Shown: positions 2,962 through 64,000 of the stretch, piece by piece
Numbering within the stretch: position 1 is the first letter of the stretch
How the letters are laid out: the number at the start of each line of letters is the position of its first letter
DNA from: Bacteroidales bacterium
GTDB lineage: Bacteria; Bacteroidota; Bacteroidia; Bacteroidales; VadinHA17
NCBI GenBank assembly: GCA_021157415.1
Contig: JAGGWN010000001.1
Location: forward strand, 2,679-66,678
Direction of reading: 5' to 3'
Length of the DNA stretch: 64,000 nt
Translations under genes and position numbers: made by a program
Notes under the pieces: generated by a model
What the model was told of the DNA's origin: nothing
The model's database searches: none
The model's input: the letters and a program-made list of their open reading frames with translations, nothing else

Positions 2962-4140
2962 TCACATTTCCAGACCTCTTCGAAGGATCCGGATCAGGTC
3001 GCCGGCGGGCTCTATCCCCACAGAAAGACGTATCATCCCCGGAGCAGGATATTTATCCCCCCAAACGGGTTCGATAGGCAGCAGGATGGTACCGGTATCC
3101 CCCAGGGTCGGCACCAACGGGATGTGGCCGGACACAGCCTCTATAAAGCGGTCGCGCCGTAAACGCTTCTCCTCATCATTTTTTCCCGCCATGTCAAACG
3201 TAACCATGCCTCCGAAACCTCTTTTCCCGAAAAGTTTCACCGCTTCGTCATGGGTGGGATGTGTTTCCAGTCCCGGATACAATACATTTTCCACTTCAGG
3301 ACGCCGGGACAGTTCCCGTGCGACCTTGCCTGCATTGTAGCAGTGCTGCTGTATGCGCAGAGAGAAAGTACGGAGGTAATCCCCCAGGCGGGCCGCATCA
3401 TCCGGCGAGAGCATATGGCCTGTCAGTTTACGATATTGGATCAAATCTTTCATAAAGTCCGGATCATTGCCACAAACCACCCCGGCGGTCAGATTCCCAT
3501 GGCCGGCCAGATACTTTGTGACACTGTGGATCACCACGTCGGCGCCATCTTTCAGAGGTTTCCACAGCCAGGGCGTGGCAAAAGTATTGTCCACAATTAC
3601 GACACTTCCGGCTTCTTTTGCCAGACGGATAATCTCTTTTCCGTCTGCCACAATCAACATGGGGTTGGAAATCGCCTCAAAATATACCACATCCGGGTGC
3701 ACTTCCTCAAGCATGCGTTTAAATGCAGTCATATCATGCCGGTCTCCTCCGGTCACAAACCGCCGTATATCCAGACCGCGGCGTTTTATCAACACCTCAT
3801 CGATAAAAGCATTGGTACCTCCGTAGATCTCGCTGAAAAACAGCCAGGGTCTATCCTCTCCTGCCCACTGAAAAACCGACAAGACCGTATCAATGGCAGC
3901 CATGCCCGATTCGGTCAGCAGAGCCCACTCGGATCCTTCTACTTCAGCCAGTTGCTCTTCTGCAGCTACAACCGTAGGATTCCTGTAACGGGAATAGATA
4001 AAATCATCCGGATGATGTAAAGGATCCAGCTCAGACCGGAAAGCCGCTGCAGCTTTTTCGGCATCCTGCAAATCAAAACCGGCATCACGGTACACCGGAA
4101 CAAAACGGGTATTGACAGGTTCATTTTTCATGGCTTTCAT
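2962..4140 (-). CDS. Cys/Met-metabolism PLP-dependent enzyme (cystathionine gamma-synthase / beta-lyase / methionine gamma-lyase family)
   Basis: Family-typical strings include YSRYRNPT, VVIVDNTFATP and the PLP-lysine motif HSVTKYLAGHG. The track start at 4155 is GTG. The first ATG at 4140 gives MKAMKNEP. Confidence 0.8.
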   Translation of the reverse strand: MKAMKNEPVNTRFVPVYRDAGFDLQDAEKAAAAFRSELDPLHHPDDFIYSRYRNPTVVAAEEQLAEVEGSEWALLTESGMAAIDTVLSVFQWAGEDRPWLFFSEIYGGTNAFIDEVLIKRRGLDIRRFVTGGDRHDMTAFKRMLEEVHPDVVYFEAISNPMLIVADGKEIIRLAKEAGSVVIVDNTFATPWLWKPLKDGADVVIHSVTKYLAGHGNLTAGVVCGNDPDFMKDLIQYRKLTGHMLSPDDAARLGDYLRTFSLRIQQHCYNAGKVARELSRRPEVENVLYPGLETHPTHDEAVKLFGKRGFGGMVTFDMAGKNDEEKRLRRDRFIEAVSGHIPLVPTLGDTGTILLPIEPVWGDKYPAPGMIRLSVGIEPAGDLIRILRRGLEM

Positions 4141-4816
4141 TTTTATTTTATCCACAATGAACTACCCCGGGGCAGAGCCCCGAGGTATCACAAGGAATGA
4201 TTTGTTTCCGACCCAGAGGGTCGGGGAATTAAACCATTTCTTCTCGTCCGCCATAGCGGAACGCGAAGGCGGATTAAAAGTATAAAAATATGTACAAAAA
4301 ATGTCTTTTCAGGGAGGTTAAAAAATGTGTCTTCAGGTTTATGACATATTTCATATCTTCGTAAGCAAGAAGATTATATCTGAAATGTTATTTATCATCA
4401 GGAAAGCGACAAGGATAACCTGAAACTGGTACAAATCGTAAGGGATGAACTCACCCGCATCGAACATGGAGTGCTGGCATAAACGTTTACAGGTTATGCA
4501 AGTGTAGATATGCCAGGGATCTTTCCGGCAGGAGGGCTAATATAGCGGGAGACAGATGGAATAGCAAAGATATCCCCATACTATACACGGCCAGGTCAAT
4601 GGCATTAAGTATCGTATAAATCGCTGTTCACACGCACTTGGGAAAAATGCCCTAAAACTATTGCATAGTAACCCTGTAACTTCCGGATGTTCCGGTTCGG
4701 AAGATCAATCCGTCAACACTTCCGGAAGATCGGAGATTCCTTCCTCCTTCTGCCTCCACACGGAAGCGGGGTGATCATTTCATTGCCAAAGCCAAGGGTT
4801 CAGTATCATAAAAACA

Positions 4817-9257: not shown

Positions 9258-9338
9258 CGTCACTCCATTTCTCAGTCTCTCAGTCTCTACTCTCACTACT
9301 CACTTCTGCCTTCTCATTTCTCATTTCTCATTTCTCCC
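9258..9338. repeat. Short degenerate 8-nt-period array (TCTCAGTC x2, TTCTCATT x3; reverse complement is purine-rich GAGTGA/GAAATGAG)
   Basis: Read directly: GTCACTCCATTTCTCAGTCTCTCAGTCTCTACTCTCACTACTCACTTCTGCCTTCTCATTTCTCATTTCTCATTTCTCCC. The reverse complement contains ATGGAGTGAC, the unit of the large array at 62127..62614. Confidence 0.7.
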
Positions 9339-11239
9339 TTGATTCCTCCCGTAATCCAAACCCCCGGAGCTGGTAGGTTGCCGATGTCCACATAGGAGGT
9401 ATTGAACAAATTGGAAACATCAAGGAACAGTTGCATTTTCCACACATGACAGGAAAAACGAACGTTGGTCAGGAGATAAGGTTTGTAAGGAGTAATTTCT
9501 CCTGACGGATAAGTCTGATAACTGCCGGCCCGGTCACGAAGCACGAACTGCCAGAAAGCTTCAACATGCCCGGGCAAGGTATGTTTCACATCCAGTATCA
9601 CCTGATGATGTAAATAATCCATGGCATATTTCGACAGGTACGTCTCGTGGTGTTTGGATGCGGTGGCAAAAGCCCATGCCAGGCGGACTTCTTCCAGCCA
9701 CAGCCTGTCCCTGCCAGTCATATGCCGTACATTCAAACGTGCCGAAAGCTCAAAACCGGATGTTGTCAGGGAGGTATGGTTCATGGTATGCCACTGTACG
9801 GAATCGGCCTGGCGTACCCAGTCGATCAGGTCTTTTCCTTTCCGGACAAAGACGCCGGCCGATCCCGACCAGGCTTTTCCTCGATGCCGCCCGCCGGCCT
9901 CCAGCGTCAAAGCCTCTTCGGGCTTTAGATGGGGATTGCCCTTATTCACCGGGCTGTGATAATACAGGTCGGTAAATGTAGGATAACGTAGCGACCGGTT
10001 AGCCGCTGTATAAATTCTCCAGTTTGTCCCTATCCGGTAACCCACGTCCAGGCCCCCGTACATTTTCCAGTTGTAGTCGCCGGTACGATTCAGGAGAAAG
10101 CCACCGTTTGCAGCAAAACGACGGATCACCACCTGTTGTTCCACAAAGGCCGAAAGGATGTTCCTGTATTTTCTGTGGTCGTACCACACACCTGCTACCC
10201 CGGGAACAGTCACGGAGTCGGCTGTTTTCTCTCCCAGTACCGTACTCAGGATGTCTTCCCTCCGTAGTTCCAGACCCACATTGGTCCGGCCGAACGATTC
10301 CGGCAGGATCATTTTCATCTCTGTCCCGGCCACACCGGTGCGGTGATAGTTGTGCTTTTTATACCAGGCCGGAGCATCATAACGAAACAACCGGAACTCA
10401 TCATGTGCCCTGCGCCAATACACAGACTGTTGATACCTCACCTTCCGCCCTGTTGTGGTAAAGCGCACAGCTGCCAGAGCGGTACTGAATTTTTCATACT
10501 GATCCGGAAAAGCCGGCGAATAGAAGCCATTAGCTCCAAAGCCTTTGTCCAGCCATCCGGCCAGGACATCCACCGAGGAGCGGGAAGTACGGTATTGACC
10601 TCTGAAAAACAGCCGGGAGATCCCGAAATCGGTATTGTCCCGGTAGCCGTTGGCAGCGGTGTGACCCACATCAATCATGGCCCGGAATTTTCCGGCATGC
10701 AAGCCTCCGCTCGCTCCGGCATGGTAATAGCCATATTGCCCGACGGCCACTTCCGCCCCCACATATGAGGTATCCGGCAATCGAGTGATCAGGTTCACGG
10801 CTCCGGCAAAAGCATCCGGTCCCAGCACACGGGAAGCACCTCCTTTAAGGACTTCCACACGCTTTATGGAGCTCAGGGGCAGGGGCAGATTGAAATTATG
10901 GTGACCGGTTTGCGGATCACTGATTTTTACCCCATCCACCATCACCAACACCTGGTCGAAGGTTCCGCCACGTATGGACACATCCGCCTGTACCCCTACC
11001 GGTCCACGTTGCCGTACATCCACACCGGGCACGTCCATCAACAGCTTATGCAGTGATGACACAGGCATCATCCGGATGGTCCCGGCCGGGATCAACGTCA
11101 TCTGCCGGTTGACATCAGATCGTCTCACAGGCGAACGTTCTGCCGTCACAATCACCTCTTCGAGACGGAGGGTATCCTGCCGGGCCCTGGCCGAAAGTGA
11201 AAAAATCAATACGATCGAAATCAAAAAGTACAGTCTCAT
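9314..11239 (-). CDS. TonB-dependent receptor (small, about 640 aa; substrate unknown)
   Basis: The ATG at 11239 gives the signal peptide MRLYFLISIVLIFSLSARA. Plug-domain strings: EEVIVTAERSP, DVSIRGG, DQVLVMVDGVKISDP. A long beta-barrel region follows. Confidence 0.85.
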   Translation of the reverse strand: MRLYFLISIVLIFSLSARARQDTLRLEEVIVTAERSPVRRSDVNRQMTLIPAGTIRMMPVSSLHKLLMDVPGVDVRQRGPVGVQADVSIRGGTFDQVLVMVDGVKISDPQTGHHNFNLPLPLSSIKRVEVLKGGASRVLGPDAFAGAVNLITRLPDTSYVGAEVAVGQYGYYHAGASGGLHAGKFRAMIDVGHTAANGYRDNTDFGISRLFFRGQYRTSRSSVDVLAGWLDKGFGANGFYSPAFPDQYEKFSTALAAVRFTTTGRKVRYQQSVYWRRAHDEFRLFRYDAPAWYKKHNYHRTGVAGTEMKMILPESFGRTNVGLELRREDILSTVLGEKTADSVTVPGVAGVWYDHRKYRNILSAFVEQQVVIRRFAANGGFLLNRTGDYNWKMYGGLDVGYRIGTNWRIYTAANRSLRYPTFTDLYYHSPVNKGNPHLKPEEALTLEAGGRHRGKAWSGSAGVFVRKGKDLIDWVRQADSVQWHTMNHTSLTTSGFELSARLNVRHMTGRDRLWLEEVRLAWAFATASKHHETYLSKYAMDYLHHQVILDVKHTLPGHVEAFWQFVLRDRAGSYQTYPSGEITPYKPYLLTNVRFSCHVWKMQLFLDVSNLFNTSYVDIGNLPAPGVWITGGIKGEMRNEK

Positions 11240-11332
11240 CGGTTCATGAAATAACCCCGCAAAAATAGGGAAATAATTCCTTTCCCCGTCACCCTGCAAG
11301 GAAACAGGAAATGAACAAACCATCCTATTTTA

Positions 11333-48085: not shown

Positions 48086-48130
48086 AATCAATGTCTGAAA
48101 AAATTTGCAAACTCCCTCAAAAATAATTTA

Positions 48131-48320
48131 CCTTTGTTGCGGCGAAGGTATCCATCGGCATTTTCTGCCGGCGGATAAGAGGGAATCAGGTGAGAAACCT
48201 GGACAGTACCCGCTGCTGTGATCTCCGGAAAGGTTTCCGGGCAATCCGGCCACTGCCTGTTTATTCAGAGGTGGGAAGGCGCCCGGAAATGGAGTAAGTC
48301 AGAAGACCTGCCTTGGCTGC
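48131..48320 (+). promoter_or_regulatory. Cobalamin (adenosylcobalamin-type) riboswitch
   Basis: Conserved core strings are all present and in order: AAGAGGGAATCAGGTGAGAAACCTGG, ACAGTACCCGCTGCTGTGA, GGCCACTG, GGGAAGGC and the B12 box AGTCAGAAGACCTGCC. It lies 45 bp upstream of a TonB-dependent receptor. Confidence 0.9.
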
Positions 48321-48364
48321 GACATTAAGTGAAATGTTCGGGATAAACATGTAACTTAAGTACA

Positions 48365-60601: not shown

Positions 60602-60704
60602 CCTTTTGCGATTTAATTTCCGCAAAAGTAATGGTTTTGTTTCTTTTATAAAACGGACTGCCTATATTTTTATATTTTTGTTGCATATGAAGTCCGAAGA
60701 AATC

Positions 60705-61832
60705 ATGAACAATCTGTATCTCAACAAATTATCATTAGTACAATTCAAAAATTATCAGGAGGCTTCTCTGGCGTTTTCCCCGAAGATCAATTGTTTTGTC
60801 GGGGATAATGGAGTCGGGAAGACCAATTTGCTGGATGCGATCCACTATCTATCGCTTACCAAAAGCTTTTTTAACAACATAGATCAACAGAACATCCTCC
60901 ATGGGAAAGATTTTTTTGTGCTTCAGGGGGAGTTTGTAAAAAAAGGGCATTCCGAGAAGGTTTTTTGCAGTGTGAGACAGAACAAGAAAAAGATCTTCAA
61001 GCGCAATAACAAGGATTATGAACGTTTTGCCGATCATATTGGTCTTTTTCCGGTGGTGATGATCTCGCCGGCCGACAGCAGCCTGATTCTGGAAGGCAGC
61101 GAACAGCGGCGACGTTTTATGGATACAGTCATCTCTCTCTACAACAAACAATATCTGCATGCCCTGATACGATACAACCGCGCTCTGTTGCAGCGTAATA
61201 AACTGCTCAAACAGTTCGAGTTCAAAAGGGAAAATTTCTATGACGAGCTGGAGCTGTGGGACACACAACTGGTCGTACCGGGAAACGAGATCTACCAAAA
61301 AAGAAAAGAATTCATTGAAAAGGTCATTCCGGTTTTTCAACAATACTATAATACCATCTCAGAAGAAAAAGAGAAGGTGGGGCTGGAATACCGTTCTCAG
61401 TTGCACGAAAGCAATTTTGAGACGCTGTTGGTTACCAACCGCGACAAGGACCGAGTGATGCAATTTTCGACCGTAGGCGTTCACAAAGACGATCTGATGA
61501 TGTCGCTCAACGATCATCCGTTGAAGAAGACCGGATCGCAGGGTCAGCAGAAAACATTCCTGGTGGCGCTGAAGTTTGCCAAGTTCGGATTTATCCGCGA
61601 CCTTACCCACACCAAACCGATCTTGCTTTTGGATGATATTTTTGATAAATTTGATGCACACAGGGTTTCTCAGATCATCCGTATGGTGGCACAGAATGAA
61701 TTCGGCCAGATCTTCATCACCGATACCCAACTGGAGCATCTGGAAAACATTCTGCAAGAGCTGGATACGGATTACAAGGTTTTCAAGATCAACGAAGAGA
61801 TTAAGACCGTCATACCGGGAGGAGAAACATGA
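60705..61832 (+). CDS. recF: DNA replication/repair protein RecF
   Basis: LYLNKLSLVQFKNY...FVGDNGVGKTNLLDAI (Walker A), signature GSQGQQKT, Walker B ILLLDDIFDKFD. The start could instead be the ATG at 60687. The track start at 60408 is antisense overlap with the TPR gene. Confidence 0.9.
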   Translation: MNNLYLNKLSLVQFKNYQEASLAFSPKINCFVGDNGVGKTNLLDAIHYLSLTKSFFNNIDQQNILHGKDFFVLQGEFVKKGHSEKVFCSVRQNKKKIFKRNNKDYERFADHIGLFPVVMISPADSSLILEGSEQRRRFMDTVISLYNKQYLHALIRYNRALLQRNKLLKQFEFKRENFYDELELWDTQLVVPGNEIYQKRKEFIEKVIPVFQQYYNTISEEKEKVGLEYRSQLHESNFETLLVTNRDKDRVMQFSTVGVHKDDLMMSLNDHPLKKTGSQGQQKTFLVALKFAKFGFIRDLTHTKPILLLDDIFDKFDAHRVSQIIRMVAQNEFGQIFITDTQLEHLENILQELDTDYKVFKINEEIKTVIPGGET

Positions 61833-62119
61833 AACGAACCAACACACAAAGTATCAGAGAAGTGATCCGGCAATATCTGAAAGAGATGCAACTCGACAGG
61901 AAGCTGCAGGAGGTGGCACTGGTAAATGAATGGGAAAACCTGGTGGGTAAGATTATTGCTTCCAAAACCGAACGGATATATATACATCATGAGGTTTTGT
62001 ATGTACATATCCGTTCGTCGGTGGTCAAACACGAGTTGATAATGATCAGTGAGGAACTGAAAGAAGCATTGAATAAAAAAGCGGGGGAAGTACTGGTAAA
62101 GGAGATTATTTTTAAATAA
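61829..62119 (+). CDS. DUF721 (DciA-like) protein
   Basis: 96 aa with an ATGA overlap with recF. The pattern ...WENLVG...ASKTERIYIHHEVLYVHIRSSVVKHEL... is typical of the DUF721 genes that follow recF in Bacteroidota. Confidence 0.7.
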   Translation: MKRTNTQSIREVIRQYLKEMQLDRKLQEVALVNEWENLVGKIIASKTERIYIHHEVLYVHIRSSVVKHELIMISEELKEALNKKAGEVLVKEIIFK

Positions 62120-62126
62120 GGCAGGG

Positions 62127-62614
62127 GATGGAGTGACGGAGGGATGGAGTGATTGGGTGATTGGGGGATTGGGTGACGGGGTGATGGAGTGATGAGGTGA
62201 TGAAGTGACGGAGTGATGGAGTGATGAAGTGACGGAGTGATGGAGTGATTGGGTGATTGGGTGATGGAGTGATGAGGTGATGGAGTGACGGAGTGATGAA
62301 GTGACGGAGTGATGAAGTGACGGAGTGATGGAGTGATTGAGGGATTGGGTGATGGAGTGATGAGGTGATGAAGTGATGAGGTGATGGAGTGACGGGGTGA
62401 TGGAGTGATGGAGTGATGGAGTGATGGAGTGACGGGGTGATGGAGTGATGGGGTGATGGAGTGATGGAGTGACGGAGTGATGGAGTGATGAAGTGACGGA
62501 GTGACGGAGTGATGGAGTGACGGAGGGATGGAATGACAGAGTGATGAAGAGACGAAGTGATGAAGTGACGGAGGGATGGGGTGACGAAGTGACGAAGTGA
62601 CAAAGGGATGAAGC
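62127..62614 (+). repeat. Phase-locked 8-bp purine-rich minisatellite, about 61 units, consensus GA(T/C)(G/T)(G/A)(A/G)GT
   Basis: I parsed every unit from 62127 in steps of 8 and found no insertion or deletion. The commonest units are GATGGAGT, GACGGAGT, GATGAAGT, GATGAGGT and GATTGGGT. Confidence 0.95.
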
Positions 62615-62791
62615 GAAGGAGATACTTACAGGCAGTAAATATTGAGATGGTTGAATAATCATAAGGTTGCCACATGAAAATATACATATTTAAATAAATA
62701 TTTATATATGTATTTAAATATTTATTTCAAATGAAGCAAAAGAAAAATTCCGTTGTTTCATTGACGAAGAAAATCATAGCATTCTATCAAC

Positions 62792-62808
62792 ATGTTAGCC
62801 ATCATTTT
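62792..62808. repeat. Left arm of the 17-bp inverted repeat flanking the mazEF cassette
   Basis: ATGTTAGCCATCATTTT matches the reverse complement of 63431..63447 (ATGTTAGCCATCGTTTT) at 16 of 17 positions. Confidence 0.8.
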
Positions 62809-62871
62809 AAAAACAATTTGCTATTTCACTTATTTGTGATAACTTTGTAATAACACATAAATAATGATGCC

Positions 62872-63117
62872 ATGGAAATATCTGTTATAAAAATCGGGAA
62901 TTCTAAAGGGTTTAGGTTACCGAAAGCCTTATTAGATAAATACAACATAAAAGACAAGGTTGAACTGATCCTTGAAAAAGGTTTTATTGTTTTAAAACCC
63001 ATCTCCACTCCCAGAAAAGGATGGGAAAATGCATTTAAAGAAATGCATAAGAAAGGGGATGACAAACTCTTATTTGATGACATATTTGACGAAGAAAATA
63101 TTGAAGAATGGATTTAA
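62872..63117 (+). CDS. mazE: AbrB/MazE/SpoVT-family antitoxin
   Basis: MEISVIKIGNSKGFRLPKALLDKY is the swapped-hairpin AbrB/MazE signature. 81 aa, overlapping the toxin gene by 10 nt. Confidence 0.8.
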   Translation: MEISVIKIGNSKGFRLPKALLDKYNIKDKVELILEKGFIVLKPISTPRKGWENAFKEMHKKGDDKLLFDDIFDEENIEEWI

Positions 63118-63431
63118 AACAATATCAAATAGTGTTGGTAAACCTGGACCCAACAATTGGGAGTGAGATAAAAAAAACAAGACCTTGCGTTATTGTTTCA
63201 CCTAATGAAATGAATAAATACCTCAGGACAATTATTATTGCCCCAGTGACAACAACTTCACGAAACTATCCAACAAGAGTTAAAGTGAGACATGACAATA
63301 AAAACGGATGGATAGTAATCGATCAGATCAGAACCATTGACAAAAAAAGAATTATTGGAATCCTGGGCAAACTAAATAATAAAGAAGTTAAGGAAGTAAA
63401 AAACATAATAAAAGAGACCTTCGTGGACTAA
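63108..63431 (+). CDS. mazF: MazF/PemK-family endoribonuclease toxin
   Basis: YQIVLVNLDPTIGSEIKKTRPCVIVSPNEMN...IIAPVTT matches the PemK/MazF core. 107 aa. Confidence 0.85.
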   Translation: MDLKQYQIVLVNLDPTIGSEIKKTRPCVIVSPNEMNKYLRTIIIAPVTTTSRNYPTRVKVRHDNKNGWIVIDQIRTIDKKRIIGILGKLNNKEVKEVKNIIKETFVD

Positions 63432-63447
63432 AAACGATGGCTAACAT
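63431..63447. repeat. Right arm of the 17-bp inverted repeat flanking the mazEF cassette
   Basis: AAAACGATGGCTAACAT begins at the last base of the mazF stop codon. Confidence 0.8.
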
Positions 63448-63886
63448 TGCATAAGGTGCATAGCTTCTATTGGGCTCTCCTGGAAAAAGATTTAATTCGA
63501 TTTTTTGTAAATTAGTTGTCAATAAGCCAAACGGAACTACACAACGCTACGCACCTTATGCCCACCGGAATGTAAGATTTTCTTGTCAGGGTAAATCCAA
63601 ATTGTGCAATAGAGCCATTTACAATCGCTCTCTTGCGCATTGGGTTTATATTTTTCTTGGGCAGGAGTAGCCCAGACTTGGATCATTCAGAGAGCAATCC
63701 CGGGAAGTTGGTTTTCAAAATGCAAAAGCACAGACAGAAACCATAGCGGAGGCGTCATGCATGACGTCTCCGCTACCTCACCAGATTTTTTGGTGGTGCA
63801 ATCAACGGGAATTCTTCGGCGGGAAAGCCCCTGGGTTTTGGTATCTCTGTGTTACTGCCTGCCAGGGTCTCCGTCAGCCGGGTCGA

Positions 63887-64000
63887 TCACTCCACCGGTT
63901 CGGCGGCTTCGGTTGTGGCAGGTTGCTTATCGCGGTAGTTCAATACCAAAATCTGGTTTGCTACCACTTCGGTGAAATATTTCTTCCCGCCAGTTTCGTC
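63887..64000 (-). CDS. Partial CDS (C-terminal 37 codons, continues beyond the window), possibly an SSB-like OB-fold protein
   Basis: The minus-strand frame from 64000 reads DETGGKKYFTEVVANQILVLNYRDKQPATTEAAEPVE-stop. K(K/R)Y.TE(V/I)V.......L resembles the last beta-strand of bacterial SSBs. There is no canonical acidic D-D-(I/L)-P-F tip. Confidence 0.3.
   Translation of the reverse strand, partial: DETGGKKYFTEVVANQILVLNYRDKQPATTEAAEPVE

Follow-up and report, generated by a model that had tools for sequence, protein, structure and literature searches.

The octanucleotide array behind recF-dciA

We analysed a long tandem array of 8-nt units that lies directly behind the recF-dciA gene pair on contig JAGGWN010000001.1 of a Bacteroidales bacterium (assembly GCA_021157415.1). 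The stretch studied, here called the window, comprises 64,000 nucleotides (nt) and is numbered from its first letter. An earlier reading of the letters, made without database searches and referred to below as the original prediction, had described the array as an unusual minisatellite at the end of recF-DUF721, a description that our results uphold. The features at the locus, including open reading frames (ORFs) on the opposite strand, are:

60687..61832, plus strand: recF, 381 aa by the gene call carried over from L121 (a contig with the same locus), SMC_N/AAA domains; it comes first in the recF-dciA pair
61829..62119, plus strand: dciA (DUF721, Pfam PF05258), 96 aa, with its TAA 8 nt before the array
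62127..62614, plus strand: octanucleotide tandem array, 61 in-phase 8-nt units, consensus GATGGAGT
62127..62230, plus strand: gene-proximal variable zone of roughly 13 units, which holds all 9 differences from L121
62615..62622, plus strand: degenerate 62nd unit GAAGGAGA, the decayed distal end, with unrelated sequence beyond
62112..62687, minus strand: spurious HHSITPSL-type ORF of 191 aa on the stop-free C-rich strand
61772..62662, minus strand: second spurious ORF on that strand, 296 aa

The start of dciA overlaps the recF stop by 4 nt (ATGA), and the array begins 8 nt past the dciA stop codon, where it had been placed before. Its G-rich strand is the sense strand of the recF-dciA operon upstream. 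Tandem Repeats Finder (TRF) reported it as the dominant array of the window (62127-62600, period 8, 59.2 copies, 80% matches, 0% indels, score 507). A walk in 8-nt steps from 62127 gave 61 in-phase units up to 62614 without any indel, in agreement with the original prediction; this length comes from short-read metagenome assemblies and could be collapsed. The consensus GATGGAGT can be rotated to GGAGTGAT, and the motif family is written GTGAYGRR. When a degenerate two-unit pattern was run with up to 2 mismatches, it matched 59 times in the window against 1.26 expected, and 56 of these 59 matches fell inside the array. Since the units are contiguous and without spacers, a CRISPR array, with its 23-50-nt repeats and unique spacers, was ruled out.

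Unit positions 1 and 2 were G and A in 61 of 61 units, position 7 was G in 60 and position 8 T in 53, as expected from the invariant and near-invariant positions described earlier. Positions 3 (T42/C19), 5 (G44/A17) and 6 (A46/G15) vary by transitions only, which had also been noticed, while position 4 (G52/T7/A2) carries a G to T transversion in 7 units of the amplified type GATTGGGT. The formula GA(T/C)(G/T)(G/A)(A/G)GT had been said to fit every unit; it fits 51 of the 61 and fails for the other 10. A 24-bp higher-order structure proved weak, the self-identity of the array being 0.780 at lag 24, below the 0.798 at lag 8 and the 0.818 at lag 16. The base composition (A128 C20 G238 T102) corresponds to 49% G and 4% C. 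No stop codon occurs in any of the three frames of the pyrimidine-rich minus strand, as had been claimed; the plus frames contain 18, 23 and 26.

Unit number and order differ between near-identical strains

DciA is encoded at the same locus on four other contigs (L121 to L124) from hydrothermal-vent metagenomes. The comparison rests on short-read assemblies, which are able to collapse or shuffle repeats. L121, which spans the whole region, differs from the window at 4 of 3320 flanking positions (about 99.9% identity), and its array has 65 units against 62 in the window, the degenerate unit being counted. The two arrays are separated by 9 unit-level differences (insertions and unit swaps), none of which lies beyond aligned unit 13; from there on, 52 units are identical. 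Over the first 13-15 units, L122 follows the order of L121, L123 that of the window, and L124 shows another order. Altogether four distinct gene-proximal unit orders were found among the five assemblies, with two allele groups each present in two independent assemblies. At site 62142 both G and T were present within one sample and run, and three of the five contigs end inside the array.

Whole units have thus been gained or lost between near-identical strains. The original prediction had taken substitution without slippage as a sign of a constraint on phase, a conclusion that does not survive this comparison. Slippage or unequal exchange of whole units keeps the phase by itself, so that the lack of 1-nt indels needs no constraint; likewise, the variant units are themselves amplified, and few independent mutations are therefore needed for the 16 unit types. 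The variation of unit number among close strains matches the DNA half of what the original prediction had named as the mark of a neutral slippage product.

Two further points were noted in these samples. A 131-nt AT-rich stretch of the spacer (62688-62818) is replaced by 10 nt in the near-identical L121. In addition, runs X2 and X4 contain a contig that matches the window at 62143-62176 over 34 nt of GATTGGGT-type sequence and is unrelated on either side (TTGAATAGACG.../TTAACTGATAATC...); another locus in these samples therefore carries a short relative of the array.

The orthologous spacer in relatives

The DNA beyond the array contains the following features:

62682..62725, no strand: AT-only palindrome whose 20-nt arms are 90% complementary; behind it, a second hairpin up to about 62762
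62872-63431: MazE/MazF pair (AbrB-like antitoxin, PemK toxin)
63746-63773, 3' of ssb (minus strand): GC palindrome with 14-bp arms (GCGGAGGCGTCATG/CATGACGTCTCCGC), conserved in L150 at about 3395-3425

In the relative L150 (DciA 93% identical in amino acids, DNA 90%), homology to the window ends at 62120, the end of the stop codon, and is regained at 62675 (the AT palindrome) and at 63904 (ssb). A 554-nt stretch of the window corresponds to 40 nt in L150, which has neither the array nor mazEF, and the DNA to the right of the array is accessory, as the original prediction had suspected. In L154 (80%), the stop codon of dciA is followed after 7 nt by (AAGATAA)x4.4 (3299-3329). L152 (79%) carries a GC hairpin and then (GATTGGTT)x3.2 and (ATGAGAA)x3.9 (3375-3438), and in L156 (73%) the 3' flank of dciA is purine-rich with no tandem array. 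Some unit types recur: GATTGG[GT]T is found in the window (GATTGGGT) and in L152 (GATTGGTT), and ATGAGAA in L152 and at 9311-9336 of the window. As judged from these flanks, the window's specific array is young and lineage-specific, while the site behind dciA has repeatedly acquired 7-8-nt repeats with a purine-rich sense strand.

GTGAYGRR arrays in other genomes

A search of a species-representative genome collection with a four-unit degenerate pattern returned at least 120 stretches. Counts of loci, arrays and units in this and the following section are among the matches listed, with phyla assigned by hand from the record titles. GTGAYGRR arrays were present in at least 10 phyla:

Cyanobacteriota: 34 loci
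Bacteroidota: 19 loci
Planctomycetota: 15 loci
Gemmatimonadota: 13 loci
Proteobacteria: 13 loci
Verrucomicrobiota: 12 loci
Chloroflexota: 5 loci
Acidobacteriota: 4 loci
Patescibacteria: 2 loci
Actinomycetota: 1 locus
Unplaced: 2 loci

The 8-kb loci around these matches, about 0.9 Mb in all, held 307 non-overlapping arrays of period 7 or 8 (125 of the target type, 76 of other octamers and 106 of heptamers), indicating that the host genomes are generally rich in such repeats. The leading units were GTGATGGG (243), GTGATGGA (224), GTGACGGG (76) and GTGATGAG (76). In viral contigs the target pattern gave 13 stretches, compared with 4, 1, 4 and 3 for four composition-matched permuted octamers; the preference for the GTGAYGRR unit order is therefore moderate and real, and does not amount to uniqueness. 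Decay was alike in the first and last thirds of 42 other arrays (p=0.65), so that the distal decay seen in the window is not a rule of the class. When metagenomes were scanned for the 24-nt block GATGAAGTGACGGAGTGATGGAGT, the 7 loci obtained all belonged to other organisms, and no further array of the window's genome was found.

In several genomes we observed inverted arrays, in which the unit of a G-rich array reappears in reverse complement directly behind it or no more than about 100 nt further on (L006 3425-3547, L092 5837-6020, L034 4191-4346 and L022 3970-4217). Such arrays could form extended hairpins or cruciforms.

Arrays often follow stop codons on the sense strand

For the analysis of position, arrays were masked, ORFs were chosen greedily and the G-rich strand was taken as reference. 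Of 112 arrays, 59 had a co-oriented upstream ORF, and 42 of these 59 start within 25 nt of its stop; the TGA of the array itself is often the stop codon of the gene. The other three classes of position and orientation gave 14/53, 10/49 and 19/49 within the same distance. Arrays abut the 3' end of a gene more often than a 5' end (61 versus 24, p=7e-5), and among those at a 3' end the G-rich strand is the sense strand in 42 cases and the C-rich strand in 19 (p=0.004). When 20 of the upstream ORFs were compared with Pfam, 15 proved to be real genes with domains reaching the C-terminus, among them ffh, secD, frr, pdxJ, eno, rsmH, ftsH and GH115. Stop adjacency was alike for arrays without GGG runs (19/58) and for those capable of forming a G-quadruplex (G4) (16/43), and this independence narrows the explanations for the class.

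The same arrangement was seen beyond the target motif. A set of 42 non-target skewed arrays combines an open C-rich strand with a G-rich strand that is closed in all three frames. An upstream ORF in the same orientation accompanies 20 of the 42, and in 12 of these 20 cases the array abuts the stop of that ORF. The G-rich strand followed the GC skew of the flanks in 56 loci and opposed it in 46, which is not significant. Where the absolute skew exceeded 0.03, it followed the skew in 38 cases and opposed it in 17; the window itself goes against the skew, and a weak tendency linked to the replication strand is suggestive only.

Both arrays of the window obey the rule. The second one is:

9258..9340, minus strand: small relative array of mixed 7- and 8-nt purine-rich units

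This array, noticed before at 9258..9338, consists of (ATGAGAA)x3.7, GTGAG-type units and (GACTGAGA)x2.4, and ends in AATGGAGTGACGG. It starts within the last 7 codons (GEMRNEK) of the ORF of a TonB-dependent receptor (9314..11323, minus strand) and supplies its TGA stop. The repeat seems to have overwritten the final beta-strand residues of the receptor, a reading suggested by its homologues, and arrays can in this way replace the last codons of real genes. The heptamer part at 9314-9340 (minus strand) encodes GEMRNEK and the TGA. Homologues of the receptor have an end of the same length with a different tail, often with a final F.

Coding, folding and pairing potential of the array

No Pfam family was found for the minus-strand HHSITPSL-type ORFs, which overlap the end of dciA on the opposite strand. 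Because the unit carries no stop triplet on the C-rich strand, all three minus frames are open and the antisense ORFs are artefacts, called by automatic callers alone; the original prediction had already traced them to the stop-free strand. A gene for a repeat protein of this type was rejected on these grounds and by the absence of the array from L150. In L121, an automatic caller has annotated the C-rich array strand at 3284-3883 (minus) as a 199-aa protein. Spurious C-rich-strand ORFs of 190-300 aa are thus a matter for annotation, and protein databases will contain HHSITPSL-type artefacts.

The two-tetrad G4 potential that had been proposed was examined by G4-aware folding with ViennaRNA. 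Over the 488 nt of the array the fold reached -74.1 kcal/mol compared with -71.6 kcal/mol for the ordinary fold, a gain of just 2.5 kcal/mol, with one G4 in the GATTGGGT patch. No G4 was predicted for (GGAGUGAU)x8. For the cyanobacterial variant GGGGTGAT a G4 was strongly predicted (8 units, -52.7 kcal/mol), and (GGGGUGAU)x8 was strongly G4-prone. The G4 potential of the window array is thus predicted to be negligible.

A further proposal, that the array acts as a sponge of Shine-Dalgarno (SD)-like sites, did not hold either. The mean pairing energy with the anti-SD tail was indeed -10.4 kcal/mol for array windows, compared with -4.0 kcal/mol for background windows, and GATGAGGT and GATGGGGT were in the top 0.5-0.7% of all octamers. 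Among 54 octamer classes of the same composition, however, GATGGAGT was at the 35th percentile, indicating that the pairing is an effect of composition.

The two RNA strands differ in predicted structure. Sense array RNA folded at about half the strength of control stretches (about -140 kcal/mol), whereas antisense RNA (488 nt, 49% C, 4% G) had a minimum free energy of 0.0 kcal/mol. In composition alone, the antisense strand would qualify as a Rho utilization (rut) site, which requires unstructured RNA, rich in C and poor in G, over at least 70-80 nt.

Relation to described repeats

The closest described class, reported from Xanthomonas and Nostoc by Rehm et al. (PLoS One 2015, PMC4692102), comprises the G-rich heptamers GGGAATC and GGGGA(C/T)T. 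These are intergenic, nearer to the 5' neighbouring ORF, located on the coding strand at most 50 bp after stop codons and, in Xanthomonas, mostly transcribed. Their length and sequence vary extensively between close relatives; they number at most 26 units, with a preference for 4, have been characterised as G4-forming, show no tie to surface or phase-variable genes, and their function was left unresolved in that work. The window array shares with them a strand-asymmetric G-rich unit of 6-9 nt, an intergenic position on the coding strand less than 50 bp past a stop (here 8 nt after the dciA TAA) and a variable length. Its variant unit GATTGGGT is a rotation of GGGGATT plus one base. It differs in the 8-nt unit, in having 61 units, and in the GG rather than GGG runs of its main unit, for which no G4 is predicted; the array as a whole is not predicted to offer the four or more G-tracts folding as a quadruplex. 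The host also differs, being a Bacteroidota-like vent bacterium, and the octamer family extends to at least 10 phyla.

Long simple sequence repeats (LSSRs) of 5-11 nt, for which polymerase slippage has been proposed (Mrazek, Guo & Shah 2007, as summarised in PMC4679880), resemble the array, in the terms of that summary, in their beyond-chance length, sporadic phylogeny, non-coding location when the unit is not a multiple of 3, and proposed origin by slippage; the survey, as presented there, stressed heptamers, and the window unit is 8 nt. By its head-to-tail units within the 1-11-nt range, its length beyond chance and its whole-unit change in copy number between close genomes (62 versus 65, in short-read assemblies), the array can be counted among LSSRs and variable-number tandem repeats. 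The TAACTGA heptamers of Beggiatoaceae, Cyanobacteria and some Bacteroidetes (MacGregor 2015, PMC4679880) are likewise a case of one short unit arrayed in widely separated phyla; some Bacteroidetes have long arrays of it, orthologous spacers are mostly array-free, and the unit contains stop codons. Their unit is A/T-rich, however, and their arrays are mostly just 5' of start codons, where they were proposed as sites for a translational regulator, whereas the window array is G-rich and follows a stop codon.

Contingency loci share with the array a slippage-driven unit number and, for an 8-nt unit, the capacity to shift the reading frame. They lie inside coding sequences or promoters, whereas the window array is 3' of a stop codon, outside any supported coding sequence or promoter, with no evident on/off target. 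The short tandemly repeated repetitive (STRR) heptamers that Mazel et al. are said to have defined in heterocystous cyanobacteria in 1990 are also dispersed intergenic tandem arrays, which vary and serve as strain fingerprints. An STRR was ruled out, since the window unit is 8 nt, the sequences are unrelated and the host has Bacteroidota-type genes and comes from vent metagenomes. A literature search for the unit strings found nothing relevant and no paper naming a GTGAYGRR unit.

Origin and possible role of the array

Within the known class of G-rich repeats found behind stop codons on the sense strand, the array represents a hypervariable octanucleotide member of exceptional length. We consider it most probably (about 60%) a slippage-driven, near-neutral simple-sequence repeat, placed in a 3' untranslated spacer where it is tolerated. 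Replication slippage or unequal exchange would lengthen and shorten such an array in steps of whole units, mostly at its gene-proximal end; variant units would arise by point mutation, mostly transitions, and then be amplified, the perfect phase being a by-product of this evolution rather than a constraint. Position and orientation would be set by tolerance, with no sequence-specific function required. As TGA occurs in all three frames of the sense direction, the array can abut a gene's last codons or take their place, and the protein is not lengthened. In this orientation it would give a C-poor RNA and place no promoter on that side. Turned round, the array would either expose a C-rich RNA or provide the protein with a long low-complexity tail.

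Several results weigh against near-neutral slippage. Slippage alone does not account for the close contact with stop codons. The unit family is present in many phyla, with many loci per genome (at least 11 in Longimicrobium and at least 4 in Calothrix MO_167.B12), and its roughly 4-fold excess in viral contigs is not predicted by a purely random process of seeding plus slippage. The purine-rich short arrays found after dciA in several relatives hint at a cause at the level of the locus or the strand. Finally, the polar variation rests on one pair of full-length alleles from short-read assemblies.

A functional role of the array at the 3' end, as a polar insulator of transcription, is an alternative that we regard as unlikely. 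In the sense direction, its G-rich, C-poor RNA would resist Rho, and R-loops or pausing could be promoted by the pairing of purine RNA with a pyrimidine template. Antisense transcription would yield a C-rich RNA that serves as a Rho-loading site and stops transcription from the accessory DNA or the ssb side before it reaches recF-dciA. The bias of the class towards stop-adjacent G-sense arrays, the unstructured antisense RNA and the weakly folded sense RNA are consistent with such a role, as are the preservation of a purine-rich sense strand after dciA in relatives despite different units and the transcription of most heptamer arrays in Xanthomonas (PMC4692102). In its favour, too, a simple pattern scan found no GC-stem terminator between dciA and mazE. 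The array is nevertheless missing from a relative with 90% identity, its copy number is unstable, and 61 units are far above the need of an insulator. Cyanobacteria, the richest hosts of the motif, are moreover not known to have Rho. The AT-only hairpin past the array, which is the conserved part of the spacer, could itself terminate transcription; it folds with z=-3.2 and is a candidate terminator, which would put the array within the 3' untranslated region. A broader proposal, that GTGAYGRR octamers and their heptamer cousins constitute a selected 3'-end element across phyla, an orientation-dependent insulator or stabiliser at stops, appears unlikely. Convergence in at least 10 phyla would then be brought about by universal machinery (the RNA polymerase-template hybrid, Rho, the 16S 3' tail), and polar growth at the gene-proximal end would explain both stop adjacency and the variable proximal end. 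Of all the readings, only a functional 3'-end role would, if true, lend the finding importance.

Other roles can be given very little weight. The unit resembles the complement of the 16S rRNA 3' tail (GGAG..TGAT versus GGAGGTGATC) and forms overlapping mini-ORFs ATG-GAG-TGA in which the next ATG shares the A, so that terminating ribosomes might be held or recycled on the 3' untranslated region. The elevated anti-SD pairing, the invariance of the GTGA core (TGA plus GTG) and the start of arrays at stop codons would fit such a landing pad. It is nonetheless very improbable, because the pairing reduces to composition, the perfectly complementary unit is a minority among the matches listed (76 of roughly 760 counted units of the eight main types) and G-rich arrays without GTGA obey the same positional rule. 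Bacteroidota largely do without SD pairing, and arrays of two-codon minigenes would be costly. Modulation of transcription or stability by a G4, formed either in the RNA or on the non-template DNA, would be in line with the strong prediction for GGGGTGAT and with the G4-forming character of the closest described class (PMC4692102); with most window units having only GG runs, a single predicted G4, none for repeated GGAGUGAU and a positional rule that holds alike for arrays without GGG, we find it scarcely plausible. The original prediction had proposed protein binding in register, or translation of the C-rich strand into an HHSITPSL-type repeat protein, as the reason for the phase. Zero indels across 61 units agree with this reading; for translation, the ATG and the first roughly 30 codons of the ORF are present in both full-length alleles, and the 3-unit difference between them is in frame. 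Both are nevertheless highly improbable, since whole-unit changes account for the phase, other arrays of the family do carry indels (10% in L018 and L092), the ORF is trivially open and overlaps dciA, a 131-nt indel separates the strains just upstream of its ATG, and the close relative L150 has no array. An 8-bp period is, besides, incommensurate with the 10.5-bp helical repeat.

The array is of practical interest as a high-resolution strain marker for the vent population and as a sequence that breaks short-read contigs. It also widens the class of stop-adjacent sense-strand G-rich repeats, so far made up of heptamers from two genera, by an octamer family that occurs in at least 10 phyla.

Other features of the window

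The AT-only palindromic element, with core ATATTTAAATAAATATTTA, is present as a single copy in the window (62675-62735) and is kept in relatives, in L150 at 3333-3390 and in L152 at 4478-4533, where it is relocated past the next gene. It may be either a terminator or a small dispersed palindromic element. The start of mazE lies 258 nt past the end of the array; beyond mazEF come the GC hairpin, a likely terminator of ssb, and then the end of ssb on the minus strand. The mazEF module and its flanks (about 62736-63903) are missing in L150, where dciA, the AT palindrome, the GC hairpin and ssb are adjacent, and the module is, on this comparison, a strain-specific insertion.

No cluster of DnaA boxes was found near the array. 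In the whole window, DnaA-box-like 9-mers (TTATCCACA, at most 1 mismatch) numbered 39 against 17 expected, and four of them, including the only perfect box, are located within 630 nt at 3525-4156. A scan of the window with Rfam at gathering thresholds found nothing at the array and returned a single hit, a cobalamin riboswitch (RF00174) at 48129-48329 on the plus strand with 102.5 bits.

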